A stretch of 64,000 nt of DNA from Dictyostelium discoideum (Eukaryota), in contig CM000153.2 of the NCBI GenBank assembly GCA_000004695.1, positions 960,001 to 1,024,000 on the forward strand. Reading direction: 5' to 3'. Positions 12,788 through 52,584 of the stretch are shown here, in pieces. Position 1 is the stretch's first letter. Every line of letters begins with the position of its first letter. The position numbers and the translations under genes are program-made. The notes under the pieces were generated by a model. The model saw nothing but the letters and a program-made list of their open reading frames with translations. It was not told the origin of the DNA and searched no databases.

Positions 12788-13618
12788 ATTTAATGTAATG
12801 ATTAATTTTATTTATATAATTTTGATTATGATTATTAAACACTAAAAACAAAGAAAACAGTAGTGGAAAAATAATTTTAAAATTATAATAATAAAAAAAA
12901 AAAAATTAGAAAATAAAAAAAAAAAAAAAAATTTATATGTTAAGATGGATACAAGAATGTGAATTTTTTTTTTTTTTAATTATATTATTATTTTTTTTTT
13001 TTTTTTTTTTTTTTTTTATGAGTGTTCAAATTTATTATTATAAAAAAATAATAATTATATTTTTTTTATTAAAAAAAAATATGTATTAAATCATTTTGAT
13101 ATATATAACACCCAGCAAAAAACAACCAACCACCAACAAACACAAAATCGCCACTCTTGAAAAAAAAAAAAATTTTAAAAATAGATACACATATAAATAC
13201 ATTCAATAAAAAAAAAAAAAAAAAAAAAAACCAAAAATTTACAAATAAAAAAAAAACATATTAACACACACACACTTACTTAAAAAGGTATTTAATATTT
13301 TTTTCCTTTCAAACATTACAATACTGCGAGATTTAGGAAGATTAAAATTTCTTAAAAGTAATAATAATAATAATAAAAATAATAATGATAATAATTAAAA
13401 TGATAATAATTATAATAATAATAATATAATAATGCTCACAGTGGTAATTCAACATTGTTGGAAAAAAAAAAAAAAAAATTTAAAATTAGAAAACAGATTT
13501 AAAAGGGTCAAATCTATTTTTAAATGTTTATCAGTTATAAGAAAAGAAAATAAATATTCATTATTTTTAATTTTATTTATATATTTTTTTTTTTTTATTT
13601 ACAATGTTAAATTCTCTC

Positions 13619-28734: not shown

Positions 28735-29597
28735 GAGGACCATGAATAAATGATTTATCCCTTAATATAATTCAATTATAATTGATATTATAATAATGAA
28801 AAAAATAAGAATCTTAAAAAAAACAAAAAAAAAAAAAAAAAAAAAATGGAAATATACATAAACATACAAATATCTTTAAAAAAAATAAAAAAATAAAGGC
28901 CAATGTTTTAAAAAACCAATTGGAAAGGGCCAATGTTTTTTGGAAATAAGAAAAAAAATTAAGAAATCGTTTTAAAATTAAAATTTATTATTTGTTTATA
29001 ATTAATAATACTATATTTTAAAATAATTTTTATGAGAATTACATTTTTTAATTAAATATTAAAAAAATAGTTTGTTAGTAATCTATTTATTTAACAGTTG
29101 AAAAAAAAAAAAAGTAATTTAAAAATGGTTATTTAACATTAGAGTACCTTTTAAATTTTTGTTTTTTTTTATAAAATTAAAATTTTAAAATTAAAAAATA
29201 ATTTTTATTTTGATTGGCTTTTTTAAATCTGTAAAAAAATTTTTTCTAAATTTCAACACTTATATATATTTTATAGGCGATTTTTATTTTATAAAAGAAA
29301 AAAATAAAACACACACACAAAATTAAATTATCGAATTATTAATATACTATCTAAAACCAGTTATATTAATTAATCACTATTAGTTATTTACTAAAAGGAA
29401 ATAAAAAATAAATAAAAATTAAATAAAAATAAAATAAAATCTTGGGATAAAAAAAAAAATTTGTATAAATTGAAATGAAAAAAAAAAATTGAAAACCATC
29501 TTCATTTCAAATACAAATACAAATTTAAAAAAAAAAATAATTTTAAAAATCAATTCAATTTCAAAAAAAAAAAAAAAAAAAACTTTTTTAATTTAAA

Positions 29598-29852
29598 ATG
29601 TTATACAGTAAATATTTAATAAAAATTTAAAATTAAAAAATAAAATAAAATTACTAATAAAAAAAAAAATAAAAAAAAAAAAATAAAGAATCAATCTCAT
29701 CATTAGGTAATGTTAAATCAAGCCAAAACAATTTGAAATCAGTAAACCAATTGACCAACCATACTCAACAAAGTACAAACAATGTTCAATATACTCCATT
29801 AATTAATCTTTCTGCTAATATCCTTGGTCTTGATATTGAATTACACCTTTAA
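29598..29852 (+). CDS. Divergent member of the small hssA/2C/7E-like (sigN-like) family, 2 exons (29598-29607, 29689-29852)
   Basis: Exon 1 is 'ATGTTATACA|gtaaat'. Exon 2 starts after 'aaataaag' and encodes 'KSISSLGNVKSSQNNLKSVNQL...'. This is the same architecture as the 51.2-52.6 kb pair, with a 10-13 nt first exon and a phase-1 intron. The N-terminus is similar ('[16 protein letters not shown]'). Confidence 0.35.
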
Positions 29853-30424
29853 AGGGGTTTTTTTTTTTCAATCAATTGAAACATGATCATTTGAAATTAT
29901 TTTTATATATTATCACCCATCTTTTGGGTTAATTTTAAATAAATAAAAATTTTCAATCTTTTTATTAAAAAGTGTGTTTTTTGAATTTTCATCTTTTTTT
30001 TTTAAAAATAGATTTCCAAGATGTTTTTTTTTTTTTTTTTTTTTTTTTGGTGATTGTTGCAAAAAAAAATAATAATTGTCATCACACACACACTCACAAA
30101 AAACGTTAATCTGAATATTAATTTTCAAAATAACTTTTTTTTGAACAATGATCAATTTTAAAACAATTTTTTTTTTTTTATTTTTAAAAAACAACATTAT
30201 AAAAAAAAAAAAGAATAATTTAAAAAAAAATAAAAAATAAAAAGTATTAACTATTTAATATATTCAAATAATAATTTCCAATTTTAGAAAATGCTTGCAC
30301 GAGGTAATTTTAAAATTATTAATAAAAATATAAAAAAAAAAAAAAAAAAAAAAATACTGACTTGATTCATTTTATTTATTAAAAAAATAAAATAAAACAA
30401 AAGGTTTATTTAGTCCTGGAATTT

Positions 30425-30650
30425 ATCAAACTGTAATTGATGGAACAATAGTGGTAACAAACCAACAAAAACAATTACAATCAACATCTCTATTTGGATA
30501 TTCACCAGCTCCAATTACTGTCCCATTTCCACCATCCATTCCTAATCCAATCAATGTTGCTCCTCCTCCAAATAAATAAAATAAGTCCTTAATTGAAACA
30601 TATCCAATTTGTATACTACTACTACTACTACCGTCACTACAAAAAACAAA
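30425..30650 (-). other. Gly-rich/Cys-cluster ORF segment resembling the C-terminal half of hssA/2C/7E-family proteins. It opens after a stop with no in-frame ATG (acceptor-like 'ttttttgtag' upstream). Possible terminal exon or pseudogene fragment.
   Basis: The minus-strand translation is '...SSSSSIQIGYVSIKDLFYLFGGGATLIGLGMDGGNGTVIGAGEYPNRDVDCNCFCWFVTTIVPSITV*'. It resembles '[35 protein letters not shown]' of the 52.3 kb genes. It sits immediately downstream of the stop of the 30708-31052 ORF on the same strand. Confidence 0.25.
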
Positions 30651-30707
30651 GTCAATAACATTACATTTGAAATTTTAAATTAACACAAAAATAAATTTAT
30701 TTAAAAA

Positions 30708-32008
30708 TTAATCTTTATTATTATTATTATTATTATTTTTATCAAGAGTATTTTCACTAGTGGGTAATGGAGATCCTTCATGTGAAGTAGTTGGATTTTC
30801 TTCTTTGTTTCCAAATAAAAAGAGTAATAATGAATTATTAACCTTTTCAGTGATTGATTTAATAATTGTATTTGATTTTTTAAAATCATCATGAATTGGG
30901 CAATTATTTTCAGGATTTTGGCATATGAATCCCTCTTTTGTTAGTCTTCCACATTTCATAAACATTTTTAATGATGGTGAAAACACACCAACATCTTGTT
31001 CTTTTTCTTGTTCTTTTTCTTCCTTCTCATCTTGGTTATCATCAATCTCCATGCCTTCTGTCCTTTCATTTTCATTTTCATTTTCATTTTCATTTTCATT
31101 TTCATTTTCATTTTCATTTTCATTTTCATTTTCATTTTCATTTACATTTTCATTTTCATTTACATTTTCATTTTCAATTTCTTCTTCAATTTCTTCTTCA
31201 ATTTCTTCTTCAATTTCTTCTTCAATTTCAATTTCTTCTTCAATTTCTTCTTCAATTTTATTTTCAATTTCAATTTCTTCTTCAATTTTATTTTCAATTT
31301 CTTCTTCAATTTCATTTTCAATTTCAATTTCTTTTTCAATTTCTTCTTCTGCATTTTTAATTTCATTTGTATTTTCAATTTCTTCAACAATTTCTTCTAG
31401 ATTTTTAATTTGTTCATGTACATTTTTATTTTTATATTTTTCTTTTTGATTATTGATTATTCCATTTTCAATTTCTTTATGTTTATTATAATTTTCAGAA
31501 GAAACTCTTAACTTTTTGGTAATATTATTATTATTAAGTATTGGTTTTTTATTTGATTGATTCTCATTAAAGTTTCTCTTATTTGTACTTTTGTAAGTAT
31601 TAACAGATTCTATATTTTTTATAATATCTCTAAAACACTCTATTCTAATTTTTTGGGGTAAATCATTAAATGACTTTAATAATGATTCTGCTTCATTTTT
31701 AGCTATTGATCTTAAATTAATTGCTTATGTTAATTATTTAATATAACAATAGAAATATTATGTTTTAATATATAATTAAAAAAAAAAAAAAAAAAAGTAT
31801 ACAAACCTATTTAAATAATCCTCATTTATATTTTTAATAATAGATTCACGATCTGATAATTTGGAGAGGAGAAAGAAAAAAAATAAAAATAAAAATAAAA
31901 AAAAAAAAAAAAAAAAAAAAAAAAGTGAATAAACTAATTTTGAAAAATAAATTTGAAAAATAAATTTGGAAACCTACATTCAAAAACATCGATTTCATCT
32001 ATATTCAT
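30708..32008 (-). CDS. Acidic repeat protein: N-terminal unique region, long (EN)n and (EIEEE)n tandem repeats encoded by hexamer and 15-mer DNA repeats, C-terminal Cys-containing region. The 5' end probably has 3 small exons (ATG ~32008).
   Basis: The open minus-strand frame reads '...KNEAESLLKSFNDLPQKIRIECFRDIIKNIESVNTYKS...EEIVEEIENTNEIKNAEEEIEKEIEIENEIEEEIENKIEEEIEIE...ENENENVNENEN...ERTEGMEIDDNQDEKEEKEQ...KCGRLTKEGFICQNPENNCPIHDDFKK...'. It is in frame with ORF 30708-31052. The upstream model is exon 'MNIDEIDVFE' (donor GTAGGT), then exon 'YRESIIKNINEDYLN' (donor GTTTGT). This model is low confidence. Confidence 0.4.
31060..31400. repeat. Coding tandem repeats: (CATTTT)n hexamer, ~16 units, then (TTCTTCTTCAATTTC)-type 15-mer variants
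   Basis: Visible as 'cattttcattttcattttc...' at 31063-31160, and 'ttcttcttcaatttcttcttcaatttc...' at 31170-31340. It is open in all six frames. Confidence 0.9.
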
Positions 32009-32255
32009 TTTCTATCTGTTTTTTTTTTTTTTTTTTTAATTTTTGTTTTGGCTTATCTCATTGTTCAATTTCTTTCTGTTTTTTTTTTTTTTTTTTTTTT
32101 TTTAATTTTTTTTTTATTTTTATTTTTTTTATTTTTATTTTTTTTCATTTTTTTTATTTTTTTTCAAAAAAAAAGTTTTTATTTTTTTTTTTCAAACTTT
32201 AAAGTGTGAAACCTTTATATTTATTATCAAAATTATTATTATTTTGTTATAATTA

Positions 32256-34188
32256 TGGCACCAAGAAAAAAAGCAGTCACTAAAAAAAAGACTGTTGAAA
32301 AATCGTATGTATTAAAAAAAATAATAATAAAATAAAATAAAATTAAATTAAACAAAAAATAAAAAATAAAGATATATTTTGGTTTTAATCTTTGGAAAAA
32401 AAAAAAAAATAAAAAAAAATCTAACTTTTTTTTTATTTTTATTTTTTTTTTCTATTTTTTTATTTTTTTTAATTCATTAAATTATTAAAAAAAAAATAAT
32501 AAGACCACCAATTGAAGAGGAAATAATTGAAGAACCAGTTGATGAAATTGTTGAATCAGATGGTGATGATAAAAAAAATAAAAAAAAAGGTAAAAGAAAA
32601 TCATCAAAGAAATCAAAAAAAGAAAAAGAGGAAAATGTAGAAGAGGAAGAACAAGATCAAGAAGAGGAAGAAGAGGGAAATAAAAAACAAAAAGAAGAAA
32701 ATGATGCAGATAAAAAAAGTAGAAAACATGATGAACATCGTAAAAAACGTGATAGTAAAAATCGTCGTTCACATAGTAAAAGTGATGAAAATGAAGAGGG
32801 TGAAGAAGATGATGAAGAAAGAAGAAAGAAAAGAAGACGTAGAAAACATAGAGAAAAAAGAAAAAAGAATGGAAATAAAGAGGAGGAGGAAGAAGAAGAA
32901 CAAGATGATGAACATGAAGATCAAAATGTTGAAGAAGATGAAGAAGATGTAAATGTAGAAAAACAAAAACAACAACAACAACAAAGTGATTTTGATGAAG
33001 AAGAAAAAGAAGAAGAGAAAGAAGAGGAGGAGGAAGAGGAGCAAATAGAAATTAAAAAAAGATCAAAAAAGAGAAATAGTATAGATTCAGGTAGAAAAGA
33101 TAAATCTAAAAAAAGAAAATCAAAAAAGAAAAAGAGAGGGCAGAATGATGATGATGATGATGATGATGATAATGACGATGATGATGATGACCAAGATGAG
33201 GAAAAAGAATATGAACAAGATGAAGATGTAAATCAAGAATCAATTGTTAGTGAAAAAGAAGAAGAGGAGGATGAAGAAAAACAATCACAAGGCAGTGAAG
33301 ATGAGGAAAAACAATCTGAAAATGAAAGAAGAAATGATCAAGATTATACAGATAGAGAGCGTGAAAGAAATAGATCACGTGATAGAGACAGTAGGGATTA
33401 TAGTAGTAGAAGTGATCATAGAGATTATAGAGATAGAGATAGAGATAGATCACGTGATAGAGATAGAGACTATAGAGATAGTAGAGATTATAGGGATAGA
33501 GATAGAGACTATAGAGACAGAGATAGAGATCACTATAGTAGTGGTGGTAGTAGTAGTAGTAGTAGAGATCATAGGGATCATAGAGATAGAGATTATAGAG
33601 ATAGAGATAGAGATCATAGGGATAGATCCCGTGATAGGGATAGAGATCATTATAGTAGTAGTAGTGGTAGCAGTAGCAATAGAAGGAGCAGAGATAGGGA
33701 TAATGATAGTAAAAGAGATGAAAAAAGCAGCAGTAGCAATAACAGCAACAACAGCACCTCAACCACCAGCAATAATAACGCCTCATCAAATAATGTAAAA
33801 ATTGTACAACCTCCAAAAGAAAATTTCTTTTCAAATTATAGAGCCATACAATCATCAATTATCCCAACTCATAATAAGAGTAAATTTGGTGAAAGAATTC
33901 TTAGTATAGCTCCAACTGAACCACCTCCAAATTTCCAAATCCCCCTATCAAAACCTTACAGAGATGATTCCTTACAACAAAATAATGATAATAATAATAA
34001 CAGTAGCAATAATAATAGTAATAATAGTAATAATAATTTTAATAATGACAATAACCCGTATAATAATTCAAACAATTATAATATGAATAACTCTAATACC
34101 TCTCCATATAATAACAGTAACAATAGTAATAGTAACAGTAGTTATTATAATGATAACGATTATAATAACAACAACAACAACAATAATA

Positions 34189-35558: not shown

Positions 35559-39815
<4,257 letters not shown>

Positions 39816-44129: not shown

Positions 44130-44198
44130 GTTTTAACTCTAACATATACACACACGCACACACACACGAATTTTTCAAAACAAATAAAAATAAACTAG

Positions 44199-51157: not shown

Positions 51158-51491
51158 TTAATTGCAACCACAATCTGGATGTAAAATTGGAGTTGTAATA
51201 TTGCCAACAGTGTTTAATACTGAACCAACAATAACACCAGTACCAAATAAAACTCCTCCAACAAGATTTCCAACTGTATTTCCTAATGCCGGACTACAAG
51301 AACAACATTGAATTGAGTTTAATGATTGAAGTGATGATGATGAAAATGAGGCAATATTGGATTTTGATGATGATTTAATATTTCCAATTGATGAGATTGA
51401 GGCTAAATAATTAAATTGATTTTAGTATTTAGGTAAAAAATAAATTAAAAATTTAAAATTAAATTTAAATGTAATTACCTAAGATTGTCAT
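51158..51491 (-). CDS. hssA/2C/7E-family small Ser/Gly-rich protein with C-terminal CGC. 2 exons (51491-51479, 51402-51158).
   Basis: Exon 1 is 'ATGACAATCTTAG|gtaattac'. Exon 2 starts after 'ttatttag'. The protein is '[85 protein letters not shown]'. It is a near-identical inverted paralogue of 52257-52584. Confidence 0.7.
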
Positions 51492-52256: not shown

Positions 52257-52584
52257 ATGACAATTTTAGGTAACTATATATATATTTTATAATTCTTTTA
52301 TTTAATAATTTCTAATTTCTTTAAATATTATTTTAGCCTCAATCTCATCAATTGGAAATATTAAATCATCATCAAAATCCAATATTGCCTCATCATCATC
52401 ATCATCATCAAGTCAATCATTAAACTCAATTCAATGTTGTTCTTGTAGTCTGGCATTAGGAAATACAGTTGGAAATCTTGTTGGAGGAGTTTTATTTGGT
52501 ACTGGTGTTATTGTTGGTTCAGTATTAAACACTGTTGGCAATATTACAACTCCAATTCTACATCCAGATTGTGGTTGCAACTAA
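52257..52584 (+). CDS. hssA/2C/7E-family small Ser/Gly-rich protein, paralogue of 51158-51491. 2 exons (52257-52269, 52337-52584).
   Basis: Exon 1 is 'ATGACAATTTTAG|gtaactat'. The acceptor is 'tattttag'. The protein is '[86 protein letters not shown]'. Confidence 0.7.

Follow-up and report, generated by a model that had tools for sequence, protein, structure and literature searches.

Two tandem small genes, one a short hssA/2C/7E (sigN) member, probably account for an antisense Gly/Cys-rich open frame on Dictyostelium discoideum chromosome 4

A region of D. discoideum chromosome 4 is best read as carrying two tandem small genes on the plus strand, gene A and the gene model B', and a minus-strand frame that looks like a Gly-rich, Cys-containing hssA tail would be the antisense shadow of the second. 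A probability of roughly two in three is assigned to this reading. The two genes would be co-oriented, each with two exons, and about 440 nt apart. The preliminary description had presented the region as a convergent pair; the arrangement is tandem instead if the B' model is right, since B' is a complete plus-strand two-exon model over the same bases. The window, that is, the whole 64-kb stretch of DNA that was analysed, has a G+C content of ~20% and short, AT-only introns. The sequence of this window directly shows the anatomy of the region, its scores against profiles and how seldom gene models of this kind occur. Transcription, splicing, translation and regulation of A and B' are predicted from the DNA.

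The hssA/2C/7E (sigN) family has ~96 genes in D. discoideum (PMC2257962). A first-exon open reading frame of 13 nt is the hallmark of the family, present in 89 of the 96 genes; 10 nt are listed for three, sigN132, sigN176 and sigN183 (PMC2257962). Family genes are split into two exons by one short intron in phase 1, and their second exon measures ~120–290 nt. Members are expected to show developmentally induced expression in prestalk or cup cells. Promoters of sigN genes were described to contain the GBF-type consensus (T/G)G(T/G)G(T/G)G(T/G), and the secreted or adhesive role proposed for SigN proteins is based on a hydrophobic Gly-rich segment and Cys pairs (PMC2257962). The window contains a canonical, divergently transcribed pair of the family:

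52257-52584, plus strand: sigN102, canonical hssA/sigN gene, divergent from sigN101
51491-51158, minus strand: sigN101, canonical hssA/sigN gene, divergent from sigN102

The pair was identified from the lengths of its exons, introns and proteins, which agree with the published table once an off-by-one there is allowed for (PMC2257962 Additional file 1). The sizes given there are 13//247, an intron of 66 nt and 86 aa for sigN102, and 13//244, an intron of 75 nt and 85 aa for sigN101. One gene of the pair reaches 81 bits with the Pfam family PF05710 ('Coiled', curated cut-off 21.4 bits). The sigN101/102 neighbourhood is ~20–21 kb away from the locus at 29598-30650. A D. dimigraforme locus, L001, spans this neighbourhood only, ~20 kb off the locus studied here.

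A local family HMM was built from five proteins: sigN101, sigN102 and one protein each from D. dimigraforme, D. cf. discoideum and D. purpureum. The D. purpureum protein belongs to a cluster named 'HssA/2C/7E family protein'. The profile is limited to five close sequences because an exhaustive profile search yielded only four proteins. A word-indexed homology search with a canonical member gave a single match, the D. dimigraforme protein.

Gene A has the following parts:

29598-29607, plus strand: exon 1, ATGTTATACA, 10 nt, ending in phase 1
29608-29688, plus strand: intron, 81 nt, phase 1, GTAAAT donor, TAAAG end, 4% GC
29651-29658, plus strand: branch-like site, TTACTAAT
29689-29852, plus strand: exon 2, 164 nt including the TAA stop

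The 3' end of the intron is A-rich, with AAAG as the acceptor. The product, MLYKSISSLGNVKSSQNNLKSVNQLTNHTQQSTNNVQYTPLINLSANILGLDIELHL, has 57 aa and a family-type N-terminal half, SISSLGNVKSS...STNNVQ. This half fits the local HMM with 25.2 bits over HMM positions 3–38, a score reached by none of 1000 shuffles. The Pfam comparison also aligned the N-terminal half alone; PF05710 gave E=0.0017 and 19.5 bits against the cut-off of 21.4. The C-terminus, ...YTPLINLSANILGLDIELHL, is different, with no Gly/Ser-rich hydrophobic segment and no CGCN pair; the whole protein contains no cysteine and only two glycines. A remnant of the tail was searched for downstream of the stop and found in none of the frames. 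The earlier account of this gene was borne out in all three features it named: the mini-exon with a phase-1 intron, the 'SISSLGNVKSS' N-terminus and the missing Gly/Cys tail. These findings support placing gene A in the hssA/2C/7E (sigN) family, as a diverged member that is short at its C-terminal end. It would have kept the family N-terminal half and lost the Gly-rich hydrophobic segment together with the CxC end. Gene A is like the sigN family in its mini first exon, its AT-rich phase-1 intron, the upstream presence of a GBF-like element and an N-terminal half of the type SISSxGNxKSS...S.N.[IV]Q. It is unlike most sigN genes in the 10-nt exon 1, the absence of a Gly-rich segment and of CGCN, and a score just below the Pfam cut-off.

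The second part of the region was first described from the minus strand, where three features are needed for orientation:

30426-30674, minus strand: open frame of 82 codons (30674-30429), then TGA at 30428-30426; no start codon
30614-30631: (TAC)6 microsatellite, forming six codons of the flank part of the minus frame, which reads SSSSS there
32008-30708, minus strand: acidic-repeat gene as modelled here, exons 32008-31978, 31852-31807 and 31710-30708; 359 aa

The peptide noted in the preliminary description, LFGGGATLIGLGMDGGNGTVIGAG...DCNCFCW, is present, but the frame that encodes it is longer than the segment 30425-30650 given for it. The 5' end carries no ATG, as had been stated; one in-frame ATG does exist internally and encodes the M of GLGMDGG. 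As for the position directly 3' of the acidic-repeat gene, the frame follows that gene in the same reading frame and starts 31 nt past the TAA, with two stops in between. The acidic-repeat gene ends with TAA at 30710-30708, has an AATAAA just after it, at ~30695, and converges on B'.

The name 'hssA-like' was not confirmed for the minus frame. With the family HMM it scores -1.7 bits, a value that shuffles of its own sequence equal or exceed in 948 of 1000 cases. Smith-Waterman comparison with the canonical members gave z values of 0.5–1.4. There was no Pfam match at E up to 10, where the HMMER filters drop per-model P > ~1e-5. At the DNA level, the B' region aligned with the canonical genes and gene A in poly-A/T matches only, and neither the window nor L001 of D. 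dimigraforme contains a paralogue of it. Rfam had no match over 29000-32200. The exon-shuffled variant suggested before, which would need a mini first exon, finds no counterpart in the DNA: on the minus strand, a mini-exon that starts with ATG and is followed by a GTA donor is absent 55–200 nt upstream, and every acceptor within the first third of the frame is in phase 2 or phase 0. The length of the frame is unremarkable because the window has 340 open frames of at least 50 codons, and because an open antisense shadow frame accompanies 9.6% of the 82-codon coding windows in this stretch (20% of the 49-codon ones).

Homologues of the minus frame were not found among 5.8 billion proteins, in collections that evidently do not hold the proteins of D. 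discoideum itself. The same holds for exact look-ups of the gene A product, the sigN101 and sigN102 proteins, the acidic-repeat gene model and the ATG-started minus peptide, all absent from these collections, and for a kinase encoded nearby, taken as an anchor for synteny, for which no Dictyostelium orthologue was obtained. A look-up for contigs encoding open reading frames of the window gave none. Two metagenome scans with B' and the C-terminus of the acidic-repeat gene had no match.

On the plus strand, the same bases fit a complete gene model, B':

30291-30303, plus strand: exon 1, ATGCTTGCACGAG, 13 nt, phase 1
30304-30403, plus strand: intron, 100 nt, phase 1, GTAATT donor, A-rich 3' end, 8% GC
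30355-30361, plus strand: branch-like site, TACTGAC
30404-30579, plus strand: exon 2, 176 nt including the TAA stop, 35% GC; an AATAAA overlaps the stop

Exon 1 is an isolated G+C-rich island within AT-rich DNA. The acceptor, AAAAG at 30403, is the first AG past the TACTGAC site, and the predicted splice junction reads ...GCACGAG|GTTTATTTAG (30303/30404). The predicted product, MLARGLFSPGIYQTVIDGTIVVTNQQKQLQSTSLFGYSPAPITVPFPPSIPNPINVAPPPNK, is a Pro/Gln-rich peptide of 62 aa. An example of a predicted peptide for the locus is GLFSPGIYQTVIDGTIVVTNQQK. The introns of gene A and B' resemble each other in the A-rich 3' end and the AAAG acceptor.

Models of this kind are rare in the window. Of the 340 open frames of at least 50 codons, four can be joined through a GTAA donor and an AG in phase to a first exon of exactly 13 nt; these are sigN101, sigN102, B' and one model within a long coding open reading frame. 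A stricter filter asked for an exon 1 of 10 or 13 nt, a GTA donor, an intron GC of at most 0.10 and an exon-2 GC of at least 0.29. Exactly four models in the window passed it: gene A, B', sigN101 and sigN102.

The B' protein itself is not recognisable as a family member. It scores -0.9 bits with the family HMM, has no Pfam match and reaches z values of at most 0.5 in pairwise local alignments with the family and gene A (z=0.54 with gene A). A global alignment of its N-terminal half with that of gene A gave z=2.1, p ~0.03. B' was considered as a paralogue of gene A and dismissed, as neither the local nor the global alignment amounts to significant similarity. It was also considered as sigN176, a gene of chromosome 4 with a 62-aa product, whose 10-nt exon 1 and 94-nt intron do not fit the sequence. 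Because no homologue or family similarity was found, the gene status of B' is drawn from the gene-structure signals. These suggest that B' probably keeps the sigN gene layout without detectable sequence similarity to the family. Its 13-nt exon 1, its AT-rich intron in phase 1, its second exon of ~180 nt and its TAA stop all correspond to that layout. B' is like the sigN family in these dimensions, in having one intron, in its overall size and in a GBF-like element upstream; it is unlike the family in its N-terminus, MLARGLFS instead of MTILASISS, and in its tail, which is Pro-rich instead of Gly-rich with Cys.

The relation between the two strands offers an explanation for the tail-like appearance. 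The minus frame is antisense to exon 2 of B' with coinciding third codon positions. In this register, a plus-strand CCN (Pro) becomes a minus-strand GGN (Gly), and CAA (Gln) becomes TGx (Cys or Trp). Thr and Val are exchanged for each other, and Ser turns into Asp or Glu. The stretch read as a 'Gly-rich tail' is complementary to SPAPITVPFPPSIPNPINVAPPP, and 'DCNCFCW' is complementary to NQQKQLQS. The Gly-rich, Cys-clustered look of the minus frame follows from its being the complement of a Pro/Gln-rich exon with coinciding third positions. The minus 'Gly/Cys tail' is therefore probably the antisense shadow of B' exon 2. Beyond the B' stop, the minus frame extends for 33 codons into the 3' flank; it would run through this short flank by chance, helped by the (TAC)6 repeat. 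The minus frame is like antisense shadow frames in that wobble positions are common with B' and its amino acids are the predictable complements. It is unlike typical ones in these 33 codons and in its openness, which is rare on resampling (see below).

Gene A and B' are also preceded by a common module:

29276-29320, plus strand: upstream module of gene A, GGCGATT (29276-29282), a spacer of ~25 nt and (CA)5 (29308-29320)
30049-30097, plus strand: upstream module of B', GGTGATT (30049-30055), a spacer of ~27 nt and a (CA)5-type run, CACACACACACTCAC (30083-30097)

The GGYGATT-N25-(CA)5 module lies 210–320 nt before the ATG, with the (CA)5 runs 288 nt (gene A) and 208 nt (B') before it. The (CA)5 run is the complement of (TG)5 and fits the GBF-type (T/G)G(T/G)G(T/G)G(T/G) consensus, which makes it a candidate element. 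Exact CACACACAC occurs at only four loci in the 64 kb, two of which are the modules of A and B'. GGYGATT occurs 21 times in the window, counting both strands. The common module suggests that A and B' probably share GBF-type regulation. Both would be switched on together after aggregation via GBF-type elements, as reported for sigN genes.

Evidence on the coding strand points both ways. Stop codon usage favours B': the 18 long open reading frames of the window end with TAA (16) or TAG (2) and never with TGA; B' ends with TAA, the minus frame with TGA. The codon score per codon is 0.200 for B' exon 2 (39th percentile of coding windows), near 0.212 for gene A and 0.238 for sigN102; the minus frame has 0.097 (13th percentile). 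Over the 49 shared codons, the log-likelihood difference is +4.8 for the plus strand, a weak difference at the ~2nd–3rd percentile for true sense strands. The flank speaks for the minus strand. Positions 30600-30660 have a coding-like GC of 27–33%, and codon usage there is better on the minus strand (-3.71 vs -4.06 per codon). Synonymous resampling with the B' protein fixed left the antisense frame open in 2.2% of trials; with the minus protein fixed, the plus frame was open in 100%. Through this asymmetry, the double openness is more easily explained by selection on the minus frame.

In one rival reading, the minus frame is a truncated or decayed hssA pseudogene whose 5' end, with the mini-exon, the intron and the SISS N-terminus, was lost beside the acidic-repeat gene, the plus-strand model being a coincidence. 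The order of features is family-like, with a Ser run containing 'SIQ', a Gly-rich stretch containing 'LIG' and, towards the end, DCNC. SIQ and CxC lie at a similar distance from each other as in sigN101/102, and GGGATLIG resembles GGGSPLIG of P0008. The plus frame would necessarily be open given the minus protein, and the 5' third of the open reading frame has the better codon usage on the minus strand. A relic should nevertheless leave traces: a young one should be recognisable, and in one too old to be recognised, 82 open codons are unexpected. The profile and pairwise scores at chance level, the missing Pfam match, the lack of DNA similarity to the canonical genes and the TGA stop, which none of the 18 long frames uses, all argue against it. 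The split or decayed family member of the preliminary description is not maintained on these grounds, as there is no profile or pairwise similarity beyond composition. A relic would also not account for the 13-nt ATG island with its donor, GTAATT, the first AG being in phase, or the module resembling that of gene A, at a chance rate of ~1 in 336 open frames for a B'-type model. This explanation is considered unlikely.

It is similarly doubtful that neither frame is functional. B' itself would then be a non-coding transcript or a family-like locus that is dead or was never translated, and the two open reading frames would persist by chance or owing to recent decay. Neither reading has a homologue, the codon evidence is modest for both, and for hssA an RNA-mediated phenotype was reported, as the frame-shifted gene still suppresses (PMC6198379). 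The plus-strand signals, however, are all intact, from the ATG, donor and branch-like site to the in-phase first AG, 62 codons and the TAA. The exon and intron differ in GC (35% vs 8%), and the upstream module is common to gene A and B'.

An inversion or overprinting event could reconcile the plus-strand family layout with minus-strand features that follow a family-like order. A hssA-type second exon would have been inverted, or overprinted, behind a family-type promoter, exon 1 and intron, and the Gly/Cys frame would persist in antisense. This fits the resampling asymmetry, but the minus frame has no statistical similarity to the family, and no breakpoints or repeats were seen. The probability of such an event is very low. 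If true, a Pro/Gln-rich peptide was born from the complement of a Gly/Cys-rich one, with the old frame still open.

The idea that the minus frame serves the acidic-repeat gene as a terminal exon, either alternative or unannotated, is hardly credible, although it shares strand and frame with the end of that gene and has a good pyrimidine-rich acceptor, tttgttttttgtag, before a possible exon start at 30636 (minus strand), as the gene has its own TAA and AATAAA and lacks a suitable donor. The donor for 30636 must supply 2 nt, and the candidates in the acidic-repeat gene (GTCATT, GTGTTT, GTTAAG, GTTTTC and GTTTAT) include none that starts with GTA. The only GTAAAT donors, 31163 and 31145, are in phase 0 inside the EN repeat. 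The one acceptor available to them is weak (exon start 30587) and lies 559–577 nt away, and the whole C-terminal domain of the acidic-repeat protein would be deleted.

The reading as two tandem plus-strand genes can be compared with known small genes. Short sigN members have been listed, including sigN183 (10//160, 56 aa), sigN176 (10//178, 62 aa, chromosome 4) and sigN172, sigN173 and sigN181 (13//178–181, 63–64 aa, chromosome 4) (PMC2257962 Additional file 1). Identity of short members to sigN1 is as low as 12–28% (PMC2257962). Gene A (10//164, 57 aa) and B' (13//176, 62 aa) match these members in dimensions and layout, as far as sizes in the table can be compared. When the lengths of exons, intron and protein are compared, no row of the 96-gene sigN list fits gene A or B' (PMC2257962). 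Prestalk-specific proteins of 57–59 aa that are 'not significantly similar to hssA' were reported as DDB_G0283421, G0283465 and G02835xx (PMC3640940). The published primer of G0283503 translates to a KSLQSITS-like motif (PMC3640940). With its 57 aa, gene A is like these small proteins in size, which makes them a lead. A literature search for DDB_G0283421 gave no match. Many gene numbers of these small proteins lie in the DDB_G0283xxx range, which presumably belongs to chromosome 4.

The result is mainly a correction: the best reading of the apparent split, decayed or shuffled hssA gene is an ordinary small gene seen in antisense. In a genome as AT-rich as this one, exons rich in Pro and Gln automatically resemble hssA Gly/Cys tails when read from the opposite strand, which calls for caution by annotators. 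By size comparison, A and B' are unlisted in the published 96-gene sigN set and would add one truncated member and one with layout and module only. If both are expressed, the coding sequence of this fast-evolving family drifts far while the architecture with a 13-nt exon and the GBF-like elements persist. Since A and B' are without the hydrophobic Gly-rich segment or Cys pairs, their products may act differently from the SigN model or at the RNA level. Expression of both would thus bear on the question whether some members of the family act as RNA, not protein.

The canonical hssA pair of the window is divergent, and its members agree with sigN101 and sigN102 in exon, intron and protein sizes (PMC2257962). 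These two genes are DDB0185642 and DDB0185643 on chromosome 4 (PMC2257962), and the agreement assigns the window to that chromosome of D. discoideum. The pair and its counterpart in D. dimigraforme, on the locus L001, are located as follows:

51158-51491 (-) and 52257-52584 (+): canonical hssA pair, with the sizes of sigN101 and sigN102
L001 10001-10727 (+): P0001, the annotated orthologue in D. dimigraforme
L001 9780-9545 (-): divergent partner of P0001, unannotated

P0001 has 105 aa. Its first 24 residues, MIKKVIFWMRYKKFFYSKINKKKT, seem to stem from upstream or intronic DNA annotated by mistake, not from the 13-nt exon. The divergent partner has a first exon and donor, ATGACAATCATGG followed by GTAAAT, and a 68-nt intron. 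Its frame comprises only 55 aa with the C-terminal end ...GNTVVTLLVVF, and the gene is apparently frameshifted or truncated.

Around the Pro/Gln-rich two-exon gene model B', the following features were distinguished:

30614-30631: perfect (TAC)6 microsatellite, in the 128 nt that separate the stop of B' from that of the acidic-repeat gene, which converges on it
30708-32008 (-): acidic-repeat gene, modelled with three exons and 359 aa
30370-29913 (-): model with a 13-nt exon 1, ATGAATCAAGTCA followed by GTATTT, a 107-nt intron and 116 aa
32255-32310 (+): Lys-rich start, MAPRKKAVTKKKTVEKS then GTATGT

The microsatellite encodes the 'SSSSS' of the minus-strand ORF antisense to exon 2 of B'. The acidic-repeat gene carries long EEI/EN repeats, a tandem array at 31064-31382 with a period of 12/18. 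The C-terminal part of its product contains CGRLTKEGFICQNPENNCPIH, with three Cys and one His. No Pfam families were assigned to this product, and the metagenome scan revealed no relatives. The minus-strand model with the 13-nt exon is most likely due to chance, since its 'exon 2' has 15% GC and yields a poly-F/K low-complexity product. The Lys-rich start resembles a first exon, one that would belong to a further gene; the 1.4 kb after it (32480-33860) are of low complexity, with several frames open on both strands.

Further features of the window concern a kinase and the CA runs:

35559-39398 (-): large kinase ORF with long Asn/Gln runs
13263-13275 (+) and 44147-44167 (+): the two exact CACACACAC runs other than those upstream of gene A, the short hssA/sigN-family gene, and of B'

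The closest database relatives of the kinase are just 39% identical, and one of them, labelled 'zak2-like', is assigned to Drosophila hydei. A Dictyostelium orthologue was not among the matches, an indication that the collections searched lack the proteins of D. discoideum itself and those of close relatives. With up to one mismatch, CACACACAC has 34 matches in the window versus 3.2 expected from shuffles. The exact runs at 13263-13275 and 44147-44167 are possibly GBF-type elements, the promoter element reported for sigN genes.
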